A DNA stretch of 64,000 bases from Candidatus Udaeobacter sp. (GTDB taxonomy: Bacteria; Patescibacteriota; Patescibacteriia; Magasanikbacterales; GWA2-37-8): NCBI GenBank assembly GCA_035473115.1, contig DATION010000005.1, forward strand, positions 86,339 to 150,338. Direction: 5' to 3'. This document shows, piece by piece, positions 12,351 to 53,982 of this stretch (positions are counted from its first letter, which is position 1; every line of letters starts with the position of its first letter). The position numbers and the translations under genes are program-made. Under the pieces are notes generated by a model. It was not told where the DNA came from. It searched no databases and was given only the letters and a program-made list of their open reading frames with translations.

Positions 12351-12383
12351 AAAAACATTAGTGCATTTAAACTAATTATTAAT

Positions 12384-12458
12384 TTTAGCAGTGCCCATCG
12401 CACCCGCCGCCGCGGGCCATCCTGAGCAAGGCGAAGGCGGTTTGGGCACAAGAAAATT
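12384..12458. repeat. GC-rich structured intergenic repeat, copy 1 (closing stem GTGCCCA...TGGGCAC)
   Basis: Conserved ends ttttRgcagtgSccatcgcaccc ... ttTGGSCACaagaaaatt are shared with copy 2. Confidence 0.55.
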
Positions 12459-12472
12459 AATAATTAGTTTAA

Positions 12473-12805
12473 CTATAAATCCATTCTAAACTCTACGCCA
12501 TAATTTTTAAACCCTAACTTTTCATACCAGGCGCAGACAATGCCTCGGCTGCTTCTGGTAGTGGCAATTAATTTGTAACAGCCGATTTTTTTGGCTTCCT
12601 CTTGAGCAGCTTGGACAAGCTTTCTGCCTACTCCTTTATTTCTTTGGTTTTCTTCGACAAATACATCCTCCAAAAGTCCGTATGGTTCTTTGTGTAAATC
12701 ATTATAAATAATATACAGCCAAGCTCGGCCTACTTCAAGATTGTTATCTGTAGCCGAAATCCTAATGGCAAAACAATCCTTCTTTGTTTCTTTATGTATA
12801 TTCAT
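12473..12805 (-). CDS. GNAT-family N-acetyltransferase
   Basis: Acetyl-CoA binding block QRNKGVGRKLVQAA. Confidence 0.75.
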   Translation of the reverse strand: MNIHKETKKDCFAIRISATDNNLEVGRAWLYIIYNDLHKEPYGLLEDVFVEENQRNKGVGRKLVQAAQEEAKKIGCYKLIATTRSSRGIVCAWYEKLGFKNYGVEFRMDL

Positions 12806-12833
12806 AAATTATATAATCATTTAACCAATAACA

Positions 12834-12897
12834 ATTTTTGCAGTGGCCATCGCACCCTCAGGAGGGCGTCCGCAGGACGTTTGGCCACAAGAAAATT
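12834..12897. repeat. GC-rich structured intergenic repeat, copy 2 (closing stem GTGGCCA...TGGCCAC with compensatory C/G change)
   Basis: Same terminal motifs as copy 1. Internal hairpins ccctc-ag-gaggg and cgtcc-gca-ggacg. Confidence 0.55.
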
Positions 12898-12908
12898 GCT
12901 ATTGGTTA

Positions 12909-20375: not shown

Positions 20376-20487
20376 TGTCCTGGCGACGGCCTACTTTTGC
20401 ATTTCTGCTATCATCGGCGCTGAGAGGCTTAACTTCTGTGTTCGGGATGGGAACAGGTGTGACCCTCTCGCTCATGTCACCAAGACA
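20376..20487 (-). rRNA. rrf: 5S ribosomal RNA
   Basis: CCTGTTCCCATCCCGAACACAGAAGTTAAGC core and terminal helix CTTGGTGAC/GTCGCCAGG, with an extended flanking processing stem gaccattgtc/gacaatggtc. Confidence 0.85.
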
Positions 20488-20604
20488 ATGGTCTTTTTCT
20501 TTTTTAAATTTATATTTTTAACAACAATTTATAAAACAATAATAAGGTTCTGCTTATAAATTAGACGATAATTTATAAGTTCAAAGCACGTCTTAGTGCT
20601 TCTT

Positions 20605-23637
<3,033 letters not shown>

Positions 23638-24080
23638 GCACGACTAAAGCACTAAAAAGTGCTTCTCCCATTTGCGGATTTCCTATTAAGAATCCGCGGG
23701 ATTAATCGCGTTTGTGTAGTATTACCTACATACCCTATTATTGTTTATAAATTGTCAACGTACACGCGTTGCAACCTTTACTTTCATTTCAATCAAAGTG
23801 AGTCCCGAAGGAGAATCCCATTGGGAAAATCTGCCTTACGGTTCTCGCTTCGCCTGAAATGATTTTTATTTTATCACTTTATAAAACACAACGACCGCCT
23901 GCAAGCGGTCTCTCAAAACTGAGGATTTAACCACTCGGACTAACTGAGTAAAAATTTAATCTGTTTTATCATTTTGATATTTTAGAATAAAATTTATTTA
24001 CCCAGAGGTCCAAGCGATACTTTTTTTGTATTCTACTTGTGGACTTGGTTCGTAATTAAATTACGATTTTGCGTAGGAGC

Positions 24081-24108
24081 ATTATATCACTACCAAAAAT
24101 TTTGTCAA
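24081..24108 (-). promoter_or_regulatory. rRNA operon promoter TTGACA-16-TGaTATAAT (extended -10)
   Basis: Minus strand -35 at 24103-24108 and -10 at 24081-24086, preceded by TGn. It lies about 440 nt upstream of the 23S 5' end. Confidence 0.6.
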
Positions 24109-24139
24109 GAGCCAAAGGCAGGGATAAAATGGGGATAAA

Positions 24140-24421
24140 TCAGTCCTTAAAAACTACTACACAATTACCCTCTTTTACATCAATATCAGCAATGATATCT
24201 TTGAGCTCTTTTGTCTCAAATAAAGCCAAAACTACTTCTCTCATTTTACCCGCTCCGCCGCCATAAATCACCCGTACCATCTCTTTATCCGAATGGTAAT
24301 TTTCTAAAATAAATAATCTGACTTCATCTTCAATTTCATGAGGAAATTTGCCATGCAGATCCAGCTCTGGCATTTTTACACCCAGCTCAGCTGCAAATAT
24401 TTGTGATTCGGATTTTTCCAT
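24140..24421 (-). CDS. Smr-domain protein
   Basis: ELDLHG ... VIYGGGAGKMREV matches the Smr LDLHG / HGKG pattern. Confidence 0.55.
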   Translation of the reverse strand: MEKSESQIFAAELGVKMPELDLHGKFPHEIEDEVRLFILENYHSDKEMVRVIYGGGAGKMREVVLALFETKELKDIIADIDVKEGNCVVVFKD

Positions 24422-24480
24422 ATTTACTCTAAAACTACTTTAGCTCTACAAGGATCATTAAGTTAGTTTTCTTAAGATAA

Positions 24481-28961: not shown

Positions 28962-29120
28962 ACAAATTTTGTTTAACGAGCTGGCCAAGAGTATGCTTTT
29001 GGCAGTCCGCCCCCGCTTAGCGGGGTTGATGAATAATATTAAGAACTATAATGGAAAACAGTAAAAATGTCAACCCCTTATCTGCCTTTTGTAAGCTAAC
29101 CAATCGTTAGTTATCGCAAT

Positions 29121-29474
29121 TTATTTTACTAATCTGCCAAAAATAAAAGCCGTCAAACCATAAGAAACCGAGACTAAAATAAACCCGATAATAGCGGCGT
29201 ACATAGCTTCTTTGGCTTTGGAAACAAATTCTTCATTGCCTCGGGCAGTCATCCAACGTAATCCGGCATAAAGAATAATAACCAAAAAAACTAAACCAGC
29301 AATAGACAAGACTATGCTGATGATAGAGCCAATAACTGAATAAATATTGGTATTACTACTATACTGAGCCTTACGAGCAGTATCTTCCAAACCAAAAGTT
29401 TGCGCCCTCACCGGACTTACTGCCATTAATAAAATGGCGAACATTATGGCTGATAAAGCAAACTTTTTAAGCAT
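29121..29474 (-). CDS. VirB2/TrbC-like pilin family protein (signal peptide + 2 TM), paralog 1
   Basis: Signal peptide ...VRAQT, then a conserved ILYAGLRWMTARGNEE...KAK...IIGFIL core. Confidence 0.5.
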   Translation of the reverse strand: MLKKFALSAIMFAILLMAVSPVRAQTFGLEDTARKAQYSSNTNIYSVIGSIISIVLSIAGLVFLVIILYAGLRWMTARGNEEFVSKAKEAMYAAIIGFILVSVSYGLTAFIFGRLVK

Positions 29475-29582
29475 AATCTTATGAATAATATGTTAAATAT
29501 CATAGCACACCTTGATTAATCTGTAAAAATAATGTATGCTATTTGTGCTATACTAAAGTTTCTATAACTAATACTAATTGAA

Positions 29583-46654: not shown

Positions 46655-47200
46655 TTAAACAATTATCTCTTCCTGTTTGTCTCTATAGTTTTCTCGCCGA
46701 GCGGCGGCAAACAAAAAATCACTCAGACGATTTAAATAAATATAAAGCTCCAAACGCAAGCTAAGATTCTGTCCGACCGCTACTAATTTTCTTTCCACTC
46801 GCCGGCAGACCACTCGCGCCAAATGCAAATTAGCTCCAGCGGCCGCACCGCCCGGCAGGATAAAATTTTTTAACTCAGGTAATTCCTGCCAAAACTCATC
46901 AATCAATTTTTCCATCTCTTCCACTCGGCTAAAATTTAATTTCGCTATTTTTTCTTGTACTGCCAGTGGCGCTTGCAAAGCAGCCAGTTCGGCGCCAAAT
47001 TTAAATAAATCGCGTTGAATATCTTGCAAAAATAATTTTAATTTTTCTTCTTTGATAAATAAAATCGATACGCCCAAAAAAGCGTTTAGTTCATCTACTT
47101 CGCCGATCAACTCTATTTCCAGACTATTTTTACTAACTCTTTTACCACCCAACAAACCAGTCTCTCCTTTATCTCCGGTTTTGGTATAAATTTTTATCAT
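46655..47200 (-). CDS. PduO-type ATP:cob(I)alamin adenosyltransferase
   Basis: N-terminal IYTKTGDKGETGL motif of the PduO/MMAB family. Confidence 0.8.
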   Translation of the reverse strand: MIKIYTKTGDKGETGLLGGKRVSKNSLEIELIGEVDELNAFLGVSILFIKEEKLKLFLQDIQRDLFKFGAELAALQAPLAVQEKIAKLNFSRVEEMEKLIDEFWQELPELKNFILPGGAAAGANLHLARVVCRRVERKLVAVGQNLSLRLELYIYLNRLSDFLFAAARRENYRDKQEEIIV

Positions 47201-47280
47201 ACTACAACTATTTTATTTTTTGTCTCTAGCAATTATAAAGGGTGAGAATCAACTCACCCTTTATCTCTGCAATGTTACTT

Positions 47281-50200
47281 TTAGCTGCAACCGGTAGTGC
47301 TGCCGCAGTTTAAACATTTATAACAACTGCCGCTGCGAATCGTGATATGGCCACAAGTTCCGCAAGCCGGCGCGTCACCCATCATACTGGACAACTGTTT
47401 GCCAACTGCATCGGCGCTGACATCTTTGCCTGATTCTATTTTTGGCATATTAGGCAAACTGGTTTGAGTCTCAATTTTTTTTTCTACTTGATCTCCCAAA
47501 GGCATCACATTTTGCCCGCTAGCTTTGGCTGCCATCTGATCAACTTGTTCAGCTTTATTTTTTTGAATACCCATTGGCTTTACTTGCACAAAATCTGTCC
47601 GACCTAAATATTCCATTCCCAGTACTCGGAAAACAAAATCAATAATGGATGTGCATAATTTAACATTTGGATGATCAGTCATGCCGCTTGGTTCAAAGCG
47701 AGTAAAAGTAAACTTTTCAACATATTCTTCTAAAGGCACACCATACTGTAAACCGGTAGAGATAGAAATAGCAAATAAGTTTAGCATGCTGCGGAAAGCG
47801 GCGCCTTCTTTGTGCATATCAATAAATATTTCACCCAGTTTTCCATCCGGATATTCACCCGCTCGCAAAAATACGCTCTGTCCGGCCACTTTTGTTTTAA
47901 TGGTAATGCCACTGCGCTTGTACGGCAATTTGCGCTGCTCGCCATGCACATAGATACGGTTGCCATTATCTGATCCATCGTGGTTATACTTCATTACTGC
48001 CCGGCCATCATCCACTAATTGGTTTACGACTGTTTCATTTTTCGTTGATAAGCTATAACCCTTGGTAATTTCTTCTTTGGCTGTGGCCACTGCGGAATCA
48101 ATTTTATTTTCCACAACTTCTTTCTCTGTTGATTTAGCTTCCGTCTTGTCTTCTTTTTTCTTATCTGATTTTGCCGACAATGGCTGTGATAATTTACTGC
48201 CATCACGATACAGAGCCATGGCTTTGAGAGCTAATTTCCAAGAAGCGACATAGGCTGTCTTTACATCTTCTAAAGTCGCTTCATTTGGCATGTTGATAGT
48301 TTTGGAAATAGCGCCAGATAAAAATGGCTGCACTGCGGCCATCATGCGAATATGTCCCAAGAAATGAATATAGCGCTGGCCTTTCTTGCCGTTTTTATTA
48401 GCAGTATCAAACACTGCATAATGTTCCTTGCGCAGATGCGGCGCGCCTTCGATGGTCATTGCTCCGCAAACAAATTCATTGGCTGCCAAAATTTCTTCAT
48501 TGTTAAAACCAAGAGCAGATAACAGATTAAAGTTTGGATCATTATACTGTTCACTAGAAAAACCTAGACGAGTTAAACAGTCTTCACCCAAAGTCCAAAC
48601 ATTAAATGCAAAGGCCAATTCAAAAACTTTAGACAGCGCTTTTTCCACTTTATCCAAATCTTCGGCAGTGAACCCTTTGGTCTGCAAAGTTTGATGATTG
48701 ATATATGGCGCGTTTTTTAAGGTTGCATGACCGCGTAAATAATTAATAATGTCATTAATTTGAGTTTCAGTATAACCCATTACTCTTAAAGCTACCGGCA
48801 CAGCTTCATTAACAATTTTGAAGTAACCGCCACCAGCTAATTTTTTGAATTTTACCAAAGCAAAATCCGGTTCAACTCCGGTAGTAGCGCAATCCATCAA
48901 TAAACCAATCGTACCAGTAGGAGCTAGTAGTGTAGTTTGAGCATTGCGATAGCCGTACTGTTCTCCCATTTCCAAAGCTTTATTCCAGCTTTCGCGAGCA
49001 GCCACCAGTAAATAGGCCGGCACAAATTCTGGATTAATTCCCATTGGTTTGACTGCCAAACCTTCATACTCTTCATCATCGGCATTGAATGCAGCCCGGC
49101 GATGGTTACGCATGACTCGCAACATATCTTCACGGTTTTTAGAGTACTCAGCAAACGCACCTAAAAACTTAGCCATTTCAGCTGAAGTGGCATAAGATTC
49201 TGCAGTCATAATAGCAGTAATAGTAGCCGCAAAAGCCATTGCTTCCGGAGAATCATAAGGAATACCAGCGGTCATCAGCACACTGCCGATGTTGGCGTAA
49301 CCTAACCCTAAAGTGCGGAAGAGATAACTGTTCTGAGCAATTTCCGGACTAGGAAATTGAGCCATCAAAATACTAATTTCTAAAACAACAGTCCAAACTC
49401 TGGTAGTGTATTTGAAATCTTCAACATCAAAACTTAAATTTTCCGTATCATAATAATGTCCGAGATTTATAGAAGCCAAATTGCAGGCAGTATCATCTAA
49501 GAACATATACTCACTGCAAGGATTGGAGGCATTAATGCTGCCAGATTTTGGACAAGTATGCCAATCATTTATATTGGTATCAAACTGCACGCCCGGATCA
49601 GCGCAAGCCCAAGCCGCGCTGGCAATTTTATCCCACAAATATTTAGCTGGCACAGTTTTAATTATTTTTCCATCTTTACGGCCAGTGAGATTCCAATCTT
49701 TGTTATTTTCTACCGCTTCTAAATAACTTTGAGTAACACGAATAGAATTGTTGGAATTTTGTCCGGAAACTGTTTGGTAGGCTTCGCCTTCATAACTAGA
49801 TTCATAACCAGCCGCAATTAAAGCAGCCACTTTTCTTTCTTCTTTTACTTTCCAATCAATAAATTCTTCGATATCCGGATGGTCAACATTTAATACCACC
49901 ATCTTGGCCGCGCGACGAGTTGTACCGCCTGATTTGATGGCGCCGGCAGCGCGATCACCAATTCTTAACCAACTCATTAAACCAGAAGAAGTGCCGCCGC
50001 CGGAAAGTTTTTCACCAGCCCCGCGTAAGTTAGAAAAATTAGTGCCAGTACCGCTGCCATATTTAAATAATCTGGCTTCACGAACCCATAAATCCATAAT
50101 ACCGCCTGTGTTTACCAAATCATCTTTAACAGACTGGATAAAACAGGCGTGCGGCTGCGGATGAGAATAAGAGTCGGTGGCCGCAGTTAAGACTCCGTTA

Positions 50201-50757
50201 TCCGGATTAACATAATAATGACCTTGAGAAGGACCGTTAATGCCATAAGCCCAGTACAGACCGGTATTAAACCACTGCGGAGAGTTTGGGGCCACGCGTT
50301 GAGAAATTAACATGAAAACTAATTCATCATAAAAAACTTGCGCGTCTTGAGCACTGGCAAAATAACCATATTTTTCTCCCCAATAACGCCAGGTACCGGC
50401 CAAACGATGAGCTACTTGCTTCATACTGTGTTCCGGACCAAGCACCGGCTTGCCGTCAGCGGTAAGCTGCGGAGTGCCGTCGGCATTGTATTGAGGTACG
50501 CCGGCTTTGCGGAAATATTTTTGCGCCAAAATATCGGTGGCCACCTGAGTCCAAGTGTTAGGCACTTCAACTTCTTTCATTTCGAACACAATCTTACCAT
50601 TTGGTTCGCGAATTACCGATGAACGCAGTTCATAGATAAACATATCAAACGGACTAACACCTTCTTTAGTAAAAAGCCTAGAAAAACGCAACCCTTCCGG
50701 AGAGTATTTAAAATTATTGTCTAAGATAAATGTCTTGGTTGCAAGGGCGGTGTTCAT
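47281..50757 (-). CDS. nrdJ: Class II (adenosylcobalamin-dependent) ribonucleotide reductase with a C-terminal Cys-rich zinc ribbon
   Basis: 1158-aa RNR class II architecture. C-terminal CGTCGH...CYKCLNCGSTTGC. Confidence 0.85.
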   Translation of the reverse strand: MNTALATKTFILDNNFKYSPEGLRFSRLFTKEGVSPFDMFIYELRSSVIREPNGKIVFEMKEVEVPNTWTQVATDILAQKYFRKAGVPQYNADGTPQLTADGKPVLGPEHSMKQVAHRLAGTWRYWGEKYGYFASAQDAQVFYDELVFMLISQRVAPNSPQWFNTGLYWAYGINGPSQGHYYVNPDNGVLTAATDSYSHPQPHACFIQSVKDDLVNTGGIMDLWVREARLFKYGSGTGTNFSNLRGAGEKLSGGGTSSGLMSWLRIGDRAAGAIKSGGTTRRAAKMVVLNVDHPDIEEFIDWKVKEERKVAALIAAGYESSYEGEAYQTVSGQNSNNSIRVTQSYLEAVENNKDWNLTGRKDGKIIKTVPAKYLWDKIASAAWACADPGVQFDTNINDWHTCPKSGSINASNPCSEYMFLDDTACNLASINLGHYYDTENLSFDVEDFKYTTRVWTVVLEISILMAQFPSPEIAQNSYLFRTLGLGYANIGSVLMTAGIPYDSPEAMAFAATITAIMTAESYATSAEMAKFLGAFAEYSKNREDMLRVMRNHRRAAFNADDEEYEGLAVKPMGINPEFVPAYLLVAARESWNKALEMGEQYGYRNAQTTLLAPTGTIGLLMDCATTGVEPDFALVKFKKLAGGGYFKIVNEAVPVALRVMGYTETQINDIINYLRGHATLKNAPYINHQTLQTKGFTAEDLDKVEKALSKVFELAFAFNVWTLGEDCLTRLGFSSEQYNDPNFNLLSALGFNNEEILAANEFVCGAMTIEGAPHLRKEHYAVFDTANKNGKKGQRYIHFLGHIRMMAAVQPFLSGAISKTINMPNEATLEDVKTAYVASWKLALKAMALYRDGSKLSQPLSAKSDKKKEDKTEAKSTEKEVVENKIDSAVATAKEEITKGYSLSTKNETVVNQLVDDGRAVMKYNHDGSDNGNRIYVHGEQRKLPYKRSGITIKTKVAGQSVFLRAGEYPDGKLGEIFIDMHKEGAAFRSMLNLFAISISTGLQYGVPLEEYVEKFTFTRFEPSGMTDHPNVKLCTSIIDFVFRVLGMEYLGRTDFVQVKPMGIQKNKAEQVDQMAAKASGQNVMPLGDQVEKKIETQTSLPNMPKIESGKDVSADAVGKQLSSMMGDAPACGTCGHITIRSGSCYKCLNCGSTTGCS

Positions 50758-50931
50758 ATTCGAATTGAATTAAATAAAATTAACTTAATTTACCTTAATT
50801 AGCTTTTTTGCTTCTTAATTTATGAGATCCCGCTAAGCGGGACGAGTTAATGAGAGTATTTCCCCTTTAGCCTATATCGTAGTATAAATTACTTTTAACC
50901 ACAAGATATAGTAAAAAAGAGGGCAAAAGAC

Positions 50932-51020
50932 ATTATACCACTTCTAAAAAAATTACGCCAAATGGCCCGGTTTTGCTTTAAATAAAAGAAAAAAAAGTAA
51001 GGATGTTTAGTTATCCACAC
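50932..51020. repeat. About 90 bp direct repeat, copy 1; carries a minus-strand extended -10 promoter (TGGTATAAT) about 165 nt upstream of nrdJ
   Basis: Near-identical to 51954..52041 apart from about 10 nt, read directly. Two NrdR-box-like palindromic half-sites lie just downstream at 50870-50914. Confidence 0.55.
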
Positions 51021-51354
51021 CTAGTTTTTTTGAAAGCATAACGCTATAAATAACAAAAAAATAATCGAGCCTAAAATTAATTCTATTATACTTAAATTTA
51101 TCCCCACTTAATCCACTTGTTAGAATTCACGCCGGCTGGTATAATTATTTTACTAAAGGAGAACTTCAAAAAATTATAAATTGGGTCAAATCTAGGTGCC
51201 ATGTTAGCCAGATTTAAAAATGAAATATTCAGCATTTAATACTAAGGGTGTTTTTTTGTTGTCTATAAACTATATTGACAGAAAAAGATATAACTGCTAA
51301 GATGCCGCCTTACTTAAAAGTAATAAAAAACCCGTATTTAGTAAGCAAAGTTTG

Positions 51355-51456
51355 TACCCCCGCCGGGACTTGAACCCGGATCGTATCTTCAGAAAGATAG
51401 GCTGTCACGCTTCGGATTACAAATCCGATGTTCTATCCAAATTGAACTACGAGGGC
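51355..51456 (-). tRNA. Atypical tRNA-like gene: Thr anticodon (TGT) with a 32-nt variable region containing a 6-bp hairpin; G1-U72
   Basis: Perfect D-arm (GTTC/GAAC), anticodon arm (TCGGA-TTTGTAA-TCCGA) and T-arm (CCGGG-TTCAAGT-CCCGG). The acceptor stem has two G-U pairs. The 32-nt variable arm is incompatible with a canonical tRNA-Thr. Confidence 0.45.
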
Positions 51457-51553
51457 ACAAATACTGCTTACTAAGCACAGGTACTAAAAAACCAGTGTTT
51501 AAAAAACAGTTATTTTCTCGAAAGGTAGCTGTAAGGTTTCACACCTACAGGAT

Positions 51554-51583
51554 CAAGCGTTAGCGCGCTTGGTTCTTTTTTTT
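51554..51583 (+). terminator. Plus-strand Rho-independent terminator (caagcg-ttagcg-cgcttg + T8) inside the non-coding segment
   Basis: GC hairpin followed by TTCTTTTTTTTT. Confidence 0.5.
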
Positions 51584-51953
51584 ACGTGGGAAGAAACGAA
51601 ACCACTTGCTTTTGGCGAATACGAGTTTACCGTTGCGTTTTACCGCATTACAAATAATTGAACCGTCTTCTGCTTGAAAGCAGAACTGATGCGTAAGCAT
51701 AGTTTAGGGATTCTCCTTTCTGGGCAATACAGCCACAATTGAATTTTCCCTACAGCTACCTTTTAAAAAAACCACCAAAAGCGTCTACCCTGCCTACGTC
51801 TGTTTTTGACAGCCGTCAGCAGTGTTCTAGCACCTGACGAGCCTTTCGGTTCGGCAAGGTAGCACTTTTGATGGTCTATCCATTCTGTGCAAAGTGGATA
51901 TTTATTGACGCTTTCCCTTGGCTAGAAACAAGGAAATAAATTTTTCAATATTA

Positions 51954-52041
51954 TTATACCACTTCTAAAAAAATTACGCCAAATGGCCCGGTTTTGCTTT
52001 AAATAAAAGAAAAAAAACTGCCAGCAATTAGTTATCCACAC
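51954..52041. repeat. About 90 bp direct repeat, copy 2 (same extended -10 promoter, pointing into the non-coding segment)
   Basis: See copy 1. Confidence 0.55.
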
Positions 52042-52115
52042 CATCAAAAAATTTGAATTAATAATTTTAATTTATAATTGGACTTTGTTATTTTTCTATC
52101 GTATAATTTACCCGT

Positions 52116-53150
52116 ATGCAAAACCCAATTGAAGAAGAACAATCCCGCCTAACTACCCCAGAAGCTGACTCCGAAGAAAATGTCTTAGAAGTTACTTTAC
52201 GCCCGCAAAAGCTGGGTGATTTTATCGGCCAAGCGCAAATAAAACAAAATTTGGGGATCTCTATGGAAGCCGCCACGCAGCGCGGTGAAATGCTGGAACA
52301 TATTTTACTCTACGGTAATCCGGGTTTGGGAAAAACTACTCTGGCCAACATCATCGCCCGCGAAATGAACAGTAATATAAAAATCACTTCCGGCCCGGCC
52401 TTGGAAAAAGTTGGCGACTTAGCGGCTATACTATCTAATTTGCAAAACGGAGAAATTTTATTTATCGATGAAATCCACCGCTTAAACAAAACTATTGAAG
52501 AAGTTTTATATCCCGCCTTAGAAGATTATTCACTGGATATAATAATCGGCAAAGGCCCGGCTGCGCGTACTATTCGCATGCCTTTATCAAAATTTACTCT
52601 CATTGGTGCCACGACTAAGATTGGATTAATCTCTGCGCCACTGCGCGATCGTTTTGGCCATACTTTTCATTTGGATTTTTACGAACATGGTGATATTGAA
52701 ACTATACTTTTACGCAATGCCAAAATTTTAAATATGGATATAGAACCAGAAGCTGCGGCCCTGGTTGCCGCTCGCTCCCGCCGCACTCCGCGTATTGCCA
52801 ATCGTTTGCTTAAACGCGTCCGTGATTTTGCCCAAGTACGCCATAATGGTAAAATAGATAAAACTATTGCCGACAAAGCTTTAAACATGTTGGCTATCGA
52901 TCAGCTTGGACTTGATGAAATTGATCGCCGCTTACTGGACACTTTAATAAATAAATTTAGCGGCGGCCCGGCCGGATTAAATACCCTGGCTGCCGCTATC
53001 AGTGAAGAAATGGATACGATTGAAACTATTTATGAACCATTTCTGCTGCAAATGGGATTTTTGGAACGCACTCCGCGCGGACGCAAAGCTACTCCGGCTG
53101 CCTATGCCCATCTTGGCTATAACGCGCCAAAAAAACAAACTTTAATTTAA
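52116..53150 (+). CDS. ruvB: Holliday junction branch migration ATPase RuvB
   Basis: Walker A GNPGLGKTTLA and AAA+ motifs. Confidence 0.93.
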   Translation: MQNPIEEEQSRLTTPEADSEENVLEVTLRPQKLGDFIGQAQIKQNLGISMEAATQRGEMLEHILLYGNPGLGKTTLANIIAREMNSNIKITSGPALEKVGDLAAILSNLQNGEILFIDEIHRLNKTIEEVLYPALEDYSLDIIIGKGPAARTIRMPLSKFTLIGATTKIGLISAPLRDRFGHTFHLDFYEHGDIETILLRNAKILNMDIEPEAAALVAARSRRTPRIANRLLKRVRDFAQVRHNGKIDKTIADKALNMLAIDQLGLDEIDRRLLDTLINKFSGGPAGLNTLAAAISEEMDTIETIYEPFLLQMGFLERTPRGRKATPAAYAHLGYNAPKKQTLI

Positions 53151-53152
53151 AT

Positions 53153-53437
53153 ATGCTAGTTGTCCCTCTCTACACCTTACTTATCGCCTATATTACTTTT
53201 TTGGCAATATTTTTTATTTTTTTTATTACCAATCTTTTGCATATTCTGCTTACCGGCACGACCACTTTTTTCAGCCTAATAATTACTTTTATAATTTTAG
53301 CCTTATCAATTCTGACAATCTATGCCACTTGGTATTATTTACAAGACACCATTTGGACCCAAACTATAACTTTGATTGATATAAATTGGCTTAAATCATT
53401 ACTGGCAAATTTTACCAGTAACCGGCAATATTTTTAA
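53153..53437 (+). CDS. Hypothetical small integral membrane protein
   Basis: 94 aa with 2-3 predicted TM segments. Confidence 0.4.
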   Translation: MLVVPLYTLLIAYITFLAIFFIFFITNLLHILLTGTTTFFSLIITFIILALSILTIYATWYYLQDTIWTQTITLIDINWLKSLLANFTSNRQYF

Positions 53438-53439
53438 TT

Positions 53440-53982
53440 ATGTCTCTTAGATCTCTGATCAAACAAAAATCCTACGAAAAAGTAATGTTCACGGCTCGCC
53501 GCCATCCCATTACTTTTGTTCCTTACGTAATTTTTTTCTTGCTTCTACTGATTGTTCCTTTTGGTTTGTATTGGCTTTTAAATAATTCCAGTCTTAGCGT
53601 TTATCTAATTACTCCCACTGGCCGTACTCTGGGAATTCTGGCTGCCAGCGTCTATTTTTTATCAATCTTCTTATTTTTCTATACGAATTTTGTGACTTTC
53701 CATTTGGATGTCTGGATAGTAACCAACGATAGGCTGCTGGATATGGAACAAAAAAGTTTATTTGATCGCGTTATTTCCGAACTGGATTTATATCAAATTC
53801 AAGATGCCACTTCGGAAATAAGCGGGTTTTTTCCATCTATTTTTAACTACGGAAATATCAGCCTGCAGACAGCGGGGGCGATAGATAGATTTACTTTCAA
53901 AAATGTGGCTAATCCAAACAAACTGCGTGAATTAATTTTGGATCTATCAGCTGAAGATAAAAAATACCACGAAAAACCATAA
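53440..53982 (+). CDS. Membrane protein with a YdbS-like bacterial PH (bPH_2/DUF304-like) domain
   Basis: TARRHPITFVPYVIFFLLLLIV N-terminus followed by a beta-rich domain. Weak similarity. Confidence 0.4.
   Translation: MSLRSLIKQKSYEKVMFTARRHPITFVPYVIFFLLLLIVPFGLYWLLNNSSLSVYLITPTGRTLGILAASVYFLSIFLFFYTNFVTFHLDVWIVTNDRLLDMEQKSLFDRVISELDLYQIQDATSEISGFFPSIFNYGNISLQTAGAIDRFTFKNVANPNKLRELILDLSAEDKKYHEKP

Follow-up and report, generated by a model that had tools for sequence, protein, structure and literature searches.

Between the divergent genes nrdJ and ruvB, the window (the whole 64-kb stretch of contig DATION010000005.1 analysed here) carries a segment of about 1.1 kb, which the initial annotation had described, from the letters alone, as non-coding DNA bounded by 90-bp direct repeats. 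Compared with the same spacer in related genomes, this segment is a lineage-specific insertion of 1,021 bp, made up of 931 bp of unique sequence and a second copy of a 90-bp promoter module. We propose that the insert is an orphan tRNA transcription unit that would use the duplicated nrdJ promoter within the divergent nrdJ/ruvB control region, and we put the probability of this reading at roughly 0.5.

The repeat as a duplicated nrdJ promoter module

The two 90-bp copies of the module, at 50932–51021 and 51953–52042, enclose the 931 nt of unique sequence. Comparison of the repeats gave 65/65 identity between 50932–50996 and 51953–52017 and a second identical block of 15 nt, TTAGTTATCCACACC, at 51007–51021 and 52028–52042; between these blocks lie 10 nt, nine of which differ, reading GTAAGGATGT in copy 1 and CTGCCAGCAA in copy 2. 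The elements of the repeat are those described earlier, except that copy 2 starts at 51953 rather than 51954 and that the second block is 15 rather than 14 nt long. The features of the two copies are as follows.

50932–51021, minus strand: repeat copy 1, the putative native nrdJ promoter module; −10 TATAAT with TG extension at 50937–50932, −35 TTGGCG at 50961–50956
51953–52042, minus strand: repeat copy 2, the duplicated promoter module, facing the insert; −10 at 51958–51953, −35 at 51982–51977, DnaA box at 52032–52040

Read on the minus strand, both copies give TTGGCG-18-TATAAT with a TG extension (10/12 matches in the promoter scan), and both qualify as candidate sigma-70-type promoters by their hexamers, by a spacing within 16–18 nt and by a position that is kept in relatives. 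Even with up to three mismatches allowed, the window contains just two occurrences of the 30-nt promoter core, where none would be expected. In copy 1, an A/T-rich tract lies upstream of the −35 hexamer, followed by the 9-mer TTATCCACA at 51011–51019, which we take to be the DnaA-box consensus; the only perfect DnaA boxes in the window are at 51011 and 52032, that is, those within the repeats. The duplicated piece spans exactly the distance from the −10 hexamer to two bases beyond the DnaA box.

An alignment of six related loci showed that the −35 element (TTGG), the extended −10 element (TGnTATAnT) and the 9-mer are invariant upstream of nrdJ and, because of this invariance, we take copy 1 to be the native promoter of that gene. 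The repeat as a whole is then the conserved nrdJ promoter together with its upstream DnaA box, the 9-mer in its conserved position counting as a candidate box. This bears out the earlier proposal that each repeat carries a promoter and that copy 1 drives nrdJ, as well as the orientation proposed for copy 2, which has the same sequence as copy 1 and faces the interior. That interior holds no open reading frame (ORF) of 60 aa or more, again as had been noted, the largest being 46 aa.

Two further regulatory features lie just outside the repeats, one on either side of the segment.

50871–50913, minus strand: two NrdR-box-like palindromes in the nrdJ 5′ untranslated region, in sequence blocks conserved in the spacer alignments
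52079–52107, plus strand: ruvB promoter TGGACT-17-TATAAT, homologous to the ruvB upstream region of the nearest relative (L002; local alignment z = 15.3)

Following the published consensus, we presume the palindromes to be NrdR boxes; since they lie outside the repeat, the duplicated module lacks that putative operator. Just upstream of the ruvB −10 hexamer, the sequence at 52083–52094 (TTGTTATTTTT) and its counterpart at about L002:5915–5927 (TTGCTATCCGT) align with an intact DnaA box in L003. To judge from this alignment, the sequence has the look of an earlier DnaA box that has since decayed, which hints at earlier rounds of duplication in the nrdJ–ruvB spacer. A replication origin at the locus was considered and rejected, the GC skew being negative on both sides, with no switch. 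The nrdJ gene itself (47281–50757, minus strand) encodes 1,158 aa with a C-terminal TSCPD domain, whereas in L003 the nrdJ product has 925 aa and a separate 249-aa ORF comes after the gene, a difference that suggests a gene fusion or split.

The nrdJ/ruvB spacer in related genomes

Judged by RuvB, the window belongs among Magasanikbacteria-like Patescibacteria of the candidate phyla radiation (CPR), and the nearest loci are L002 (90% identity), L003 (82%) and L004–L010 (73–76%). In L003, L007 and L011, the genes nrdJ and ruvB lie side by side in divergent orientation, as they do, across a longer spacer, in L009. In the first three, the spacers measure 217–300 bp (217 bp in L003) and contain one copy of the module and none of the interior. 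Because these relatives lack both the 931 nt and one copy of the module, we regard the segment as an insertion accompanied by a duplication. The initial annotation had offered, as its alternative, a small integrated element flanked by repeats, and the comparison of loci that it recommended fits that alternative. It had also held that the absence of the interior and of one repeat from relatives could mark a simple tandem duplication; that absence is indeed what we found, but a simple tandem duplication is excluded, because the 931 nt duplicate nothing nearby, nor has the interior a duplicate elsewhere in the window.

The nearest relative, L002, carries a different insert of 3.7 kb in the same place and only one copy of the nrdJ module. 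At the left border of that insert (L002:2211–2245) lies a degenerate second ruvB promoter segment (z = 5.1 against the ruvB upstream region of the window). The region L002:2126–5900 encodes a protein of the PNP (purine-nucleoside-phosphorylase) family, a PfkB kinase, a nucleoside 2-deoxyribosyltransferase and a 336-aa protein without a Pfam match.

The contig, a third-party MAG record of 188,981 bp at NCBI, is labelled ‘Candidatus Udaeobacter sp.’ (Verrucomicrobia), yet its RuvB is closest to those of metagenome-assembled genomes (MAGs) of Magasanikbacteria/Patescibacteria (73–90% identity), and it therefore looks mislabelled or misbinned.

A tRNA gene on a long stalk

Within the interior, the following two features lie together.

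51355–51456, minus strand: tRNA gene with the anticodon UGU, predicted to read ACA (Thr); Rfam RF00005, 59.3 bits, E = 6.6e-12, model positions 1–71
51325–51482, minus strand: domain C, a 26-bp leader–trailer stalk with arms 51457–51482 and 51330–51354, coaxial with the tRNA acceptor stem and followed by U6 (51330–51325)

The gene that had been described as atypical and tRNA-like is thus recognized by the Rfam tRNA model, with a score that exceeds the gathering threshold of 29 bits and falls among those of the other tRNAs in the window (56–69 bits). The acceptor stem has seven base pairs, including G1·U72 and U5·G68; the D, anticodon and T arms are intact, and the conserved nucleotides legible in the Rfam alignment comprise U8, A14, G18-G19, U33, the GUUC start of the T-loop, A58 and C61. 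The CCA end is not encoded, A73 being followed by CAA. The variable region is 32 nt long (an insertion of 29 nt relative to the model) and holds a 6-bp A/U hairpin, compared with a normal length of 4–5 nt, or up to about 21 nt in class II tRNAs, and it is because of this length that ARAGORN reported no tRNA at 51355–51456. Nor does the gene pass as a class II tRNA (Leu/Ser/Tyr), having a UGU anticodon and about 10 unpaired nt on the 5′ side of the arm hairpin; the variable arms of the two class II tRNA-Leu genes in the window are far shorter. No paralogue was found among the other eight tRNAs of the window. ACA codons are common in the ORFs of the window (14.2 per 1000), so the genome needs a tRNA with the anticodon UGU somewhere.

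None of the other eight tRNAs in the window has a flank duplex as strong as that of this gene (−26.2 kcal/mol), and domain C as a whole folds on the minus strand with a z-score of −8.0. In our folding model, the stalk may be a tRNA-capped intrinsic terminator or a processing stalk.

Folding of the rest of the interior

The interior folds far better than shuffled sequence. Over 51330–51950 as a whole, the z-score reached −8.2 for the minus strand and −11.0 for the plus strand, against −2.1 to +0.6 for coding controls, and the ~430 nt upstream of the tRNA stalk has the character of strongly folding RNA (z from about −4 to −8). Apart from domain C, the following features were distinguished.

51765–51945, minus strand: domain A, the first ~180 nt downstream of the copy-2 promoter; hairpins at 51913–51936 and 51877–51900, a 24-bp stalk and U7
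51513–51771, strand ambiguous: domain B, ~245 nt closed by a long-range inverted repeat with arms 51513–51536 and 51748–51771
51549–51584, plus strand: hairpin with the shape of an intrinsic terminator; 12-bp stem at 51549–51576, including three G·U pairs, then T8
51022–51324, no strand assigned: AT-rich arm, 28% GC, without significant folding (z = +1.7 on the minus strand and +0.4 on the plus strand)

In domain A, a three-way junction is closed by the stalk (51770–51794 with 51853–51876), after which comes U7 (51771–51765). The four G·U pairs of the stalk on the minus strand correspond to A·C mismatches on the plus strand, and the chance that all four of the four non-Watson–Crick positions would be G·U on one given strand is estimated at about (1/6)^4. 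The minus strand of the domain reaches −67.8 kcal/mol (z = −5.1), compared with −57.6 kcal/mol for the plus strand. Domains A and C are better folded on the minus strand, with z-scores of −5.1 and −8.0.

Domain B behaves differently, with −76.1 kcal/mol (z = −4.1) on the minus strand and −83.2 kcal/mol (z = −5.4) on the plus strand. The 16-nt inverted repeat described earlier is present at 51521–51536 and 51748–51763, where 15 of the 16 positions form Watson–Crick pairs; the remaining position gives G·U if the minus strand is read and A·C if the plus strand is. With the arms lengthened to 24 nt, the match is 83%, and we estimate the chance expectation of a 15/16 repeat within 1.1 kb at about 0.007. 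Also recovered was the plus-strand terminator that had been placed at 51554–51583. On the minus strand, its three G·U pairs turn into A·C mismatches. As a candidate intrinsic terminator, this hairpin has the expected shape; the two minus-strand stalks, with U6 and U7, are atypical, because their ‘loops’ are oversized.

The AT-rich arm contains promoter-like hexamers on the plus strand (51117–51145 and 51275–51303) and on the minus strand (51202–51173). We found no internal duplication among domains A, B and C and the left arm. The anticodon loop and domain B share a run of 12 nt (at 51413 and 51644), which was set aside, as a match of that kind is estimated to be expected by chance.

Searches for known families and relatives

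The initial annotation had been unable to match motifs of RNase P, tmRNA or signal recognition particle (SRP) RNA, and the Rfam scans of the region that it called for agree. Three scans of the region, at E ≤1 and E ≤10, and one of the whole window at the gathering threshold returned only the tRNA for this region, plus five far-sub-threshold matches (E = 1.5–4.4), which we take as chance; at E ≤10, Rfam was silent for RNase P, tmRNA, SRP, 6S, group I/II introns, riboswitches and GOLLD/ROOL/OLE. Resemblances seen by eye to RNase P P4/CR and to SRP domain IV were rejected, the order of the motifs being wrong and helices missing, and ARAGORN gave no tmRNA. Nor did any of the interior ORFs have a Pfam match. 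The source annotation includes one of them as a gene.

51560–51700, minus strand: hypothetical protein VLK22_03230, 46 aa, in the structured region, with a Shine–Dalgarno-like AAAGGAG

As a hidden gene, this ORF was rejected: it has no Pfam match, finds only itself among 5.8 billion proteins and is not on record in other contigs, and it is probably a spurious call. An antisense ORF across the tRNA, used as a protein query, gave no match.

BLAST searches for relatives of the interior in phage records and plasmids gave only trivial matches to tRNA arms. Seven pattern scans of viral contigs produced nothing relevant (two contigs, L082 and L088, were chance or unrelated matches). Among 80 RuvB loci, BLAST found no homologous RNA near ruvB, and Rfam searches of the 11 nearest loci found only a tRNA-Leu. 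One search of metagenomes for long-armed UGU tRNAs returned five high-GC contigs (L083–L087), none of which holds a relative of the tRNA in the window; L083, L085 and L086 have no clear tRNA. The other two, from soil metagenomes (53–57% GC), carry at L084:168–227 and L087:1229–1288 a UGU tRNA with an 8-bp long variable arm, G73 and an encoded CCA, which is a Ser-type body with a Thr anticodon, unrelated to the tRNA in the window. All five of the flanking proteins searched (46655–53982) were singletons at 90% clustering, with NrdJ not on record elsewhere, so the species has been seen once.

We also considered a miniature inverted-repeat transposable element (MITE), for which the arms 51513–51536 and 51748–51771 could pass as terminal repeats, and rejected it because neither the window nor the loci contain a further copy.

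Elsewhere in the window, the 23S and 5S rRNA genes are adjacent (20378–23642, minus strand), with no 16S rRNA gene in the 64 kb. Four stretches of 540–840 nt (4405–4946, 12351–12908, 23643–24480 and 28989–29582) have no ORF of at least 120 aa and no Rfam match at the gathering threshold; the first has 49% GC, compared with a coding mean of 40%.

The proposed transcription unit

A scan of the minus strand between 51953 and 51456 found no other promoter-like site; the only others reported on that strand lie within the tRNA (51408–51380) or downstream of it (51202–51173). Copy 2 is therefore taken as the promoter of the tRNA, being the only strong minus-strand promoter-like site upstream of it. 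According to the proposed scheme, copy 1 would keep serving nrdJ, while copy 2 would start a minus-strand transcript near 51945. Some transcripts would probably end at the U7 that follows the domain A stalk, yielding an RNA of ~180 nt. Read-through would cross the structured leader of ~430 nt, first domain A and then domain B, into the tRNA(UGU), and the transcript would end at the U6 after the tRNA-capped 26-bp stalk, near 51325. Cleavage of the stalk, followed by RNase P and 3′ trimming, would release the tRNA, to which CCA would be added afterwards and which might then decode ACA. If copy 2 is active, the unit would share part of the control of nrdJ, having kept the DnaA box, while the NrdR-like operator is absent.

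Several observations weigh against this scheme. The plus-strand terminator lies within domain B, which itself folds better on the plus strand, and together these suggest convergent transcription units rather than one RNA; the promoter-like sites at 51117–51145 and 51275–51303 could feed such a convergent antisense unit. A leader of 490 nt and a long stalk with U7 separate the promoter from the tRNA, so that the tRNA would depend on read-through. The ends of the tRNA are buried in the 26-bp helix, and RNase P acts poorly on a leader–trailer helix that prolongs the acceptor stem unless the helix is first cut. The searches for homologues of the interior in the loci, in the phage, plasmid, viral and metagenome collections and among proteins, limited as they were, found none, which leaves a function of the leader without support from covariation or conservation. 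Finally, a simple recent duplication does not account for the 10 nt that set the otherwise identical copies apart. This difference fits an older duplication, in which gene conversion homogenized the 65 nt and selection kept the DnaA box, and it also fits a crossover between two non-identical modules, as when a circle integrates with its own copy.

If the transcript is real, it would represent an unusual mode of tRNA expression, in which a gene has been recruited into a compact divergent control region through duplication of a DnaA-box promoter, with a folded leader of 430 nt and a tRNA-capped stalk as the terminator. Which synthetase would charge a tRNA that has both a Thr anticodon and an oversized extra arm is a further question. 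The compact nrdJ/ruvB control region takes different inserts in sister species, with a duplicated promoter at the border here and, less clearly, in L002. As there is a single sequence, implications beyond the anatomy are leads rather than findings.

Alternative explanations

The crossover just mentioned belongs to a different account, unlikely in our view, in which a protein-less integrative cassette, a circle of ~1 kb carrying its own module, entered by a single crossover within the 65-nt identity. Recombination, homologous or site-specific, would have been supplied in trans, the repeats would be hybrids resembling attL and attR (att, attachment site), and the element may still excise. The direct repeats at both ends of the insert and the empty site in relatives are what an att-flanked element should show, and the pattern of 65 identical, 10 swapped and 15 identical nt is the trace expected of a crossover between similar but non-identical modules. 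Drawn as a circle (DnaA box, promoter, structured RNA, tRNA, terminator, AT-rich arm), the insert would form a coherent unit from promoter to terminator. Copy 2 is also where the k=31 Logan contig ends, 30 nt into the repeat, which is compatible with a circle; at this k, the assembly graph does not separate an integrated insert from an empty site plus a 1,021-bp circle. The insert of L002 at the same spot, with its degenerate duplicate of the ruvB promoter at the border, points the same way, but its genes are those of ordinary nucleoside salvage, which suggests that the site simply tolerates insertions. The cassette would also need a recombinase from elsewhere, as there is no integrase or other recombinase in or beside the insert; no second copy was found in the window, nor any other copy or relative in the loci, phage records, plasmids, viral contigs and metagenome collections searched. 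Moreover, a host promoter conserved in relatives is unlike a typical attachment site, such as the 3′ end of a tRNA gene.

It is rather improbable that the insert is non-functional captured DNA, that is, a tRNA gene or pseudogene and a palindromic fragment trapped during break repair, with the folding reflecting inverted repeats at the level of DNA and the promoter copy arising as a by-product. An orphan sequence without conservation would be expected on this account, as would the mixed strand signals (a plus-strand terminator within a minus-strand structure), the unstructured arm of 28% GC and a tRNA with an oversized variable region and two G·U acceptor pairs. All four stems of that tRNA and its conserved tertiary nucleotides are, however, intact. 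DNA palindromes do not predict that the G·U pairs of the domain A stalk should all fall on one strand. U-runs come directly after both long stalks, on the strand of the tRNA; in addition, the edge of the duplication coincides exactly with the edge of the −10 hexamer.

The initial annotation had suggested an uncharacterised structured non-coding RNA (ncRNA) driven by the duplicated promoter. A reading of this kind is that the segment encodes a new ncRNA of ~615 nt with several domains, one where the stalked tRNA-like unit would serve as a structural or recognition module rather than as a decoding tRNA and where the DnaA-box promoter would make the level of the RNA track replication or the dNTP status. 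We find this very doubtful. Three stalk-closed domains stand in series with very low folding z-scores, the acceptor stem runs into a 26-bp helix that would hinder maturation of the ends, the variable region is abnormal, and the promoter copy retains the DnaA box and not the NrdR operator. Yet the anticodon arm is canonical and codon usage needs a UGU tRNA; the strand of domain B is ambiguous, and the plus-strand terminator conflicts with one minus-strand RNA. The searches gave no Rfam family (the large tRNA-adjacent RNAs included), homologue or covariation data that would mark the structured part as a functional ncRNA. More speculative still is a combination of this view with the circle, in which the 1,021-bp unit would be a protein-free, RNA-only cassette, moved or maintained as a unit through its own copy of the promoter module and expressing a new multi-domain RNA with a tRNA-like end under DnaA control; we consider it a long shot.

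That the interior was mis-threaded between two occurrences of the repeat in the MAG contig is highly improbable: although the species is known from a single MAG contig and one sequencing run and an independent k=31 assembly is interrupted at the repeat, such an interruption is expected for any repeat that exceeds k, with or without a real insertion, and the copies are non-identical, the differing 10-nt block and its flanks giving two distinct junction sequences in the data.

Comparison with known systems

Like elements flanked by att sites that arise by Campbell-type integration, including cis-mobilizable elements without an integrase, the segment is a discrete insert that is bounded by direct repeats of its target and absent from sister genomes. 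It differs from them in its size of ~1 kb, in having no recombinase, in using a host promoter as its repeat and in having no other copy in the collections searched. It resembles GOLLD and ROOL in placing several hundred nt of structured non-coding sequence beside a tRNA, but there is no Rfam match at E ≤10, it occurs once and the tRNA is apparently part of the same unit.

The tRNA shares with the long-arm class II tRNAs, and with the ‘allo-tRNAs’ with non-cognate anticodons reportedly described by Mukai et al. in 2017, a cloverleaf with its four arms and an additional long one, together with an anticodon (UGU) that is normally found on a short-arm tRNA. Its extra arm, unlike theirs, consists of about 10 unpaired nt and a 6-bp A/U hairpin rather than a compact stem leaving the core. 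It also has standard acceptor (7-bp) and T (5-bp) stems, A73 and the 26-bp stalk. On these comparisons, the structured leader would appear to belong to no described family, and the tRNA to fit neither class II nor the allo-tRNAs considered here.

Ribonucleotide reductase promoters controlled by DnaA boxes and by NrdR are known from E. coli nrdAB and from the NrdR regulon, and the native arrangement here is ordinary in that respect, with a perfect conserved DnaA box upstream of a ribonucleotide reductase promoter and paired palindromes downstream. Unlike nrdAB, nrdJ here is of class II (B12-dependent) and belongs to a CPR bacterium, and the promoter with its DnaA box is duplicated so that the second copy faces RNA genes and has no NrdR-like operator.

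The closest parallel to the stalk lies in the leader–trailer stalks of rRNA operons, which are substrates of RNase III and which likewise place long complementary flanks around a stable RNA. Here, in contrast, the stalk encloses a tRNA, forms a direct continuation of its acceptor stem and has a U-run immediately after it, in the manner of an intrinsic terminator.

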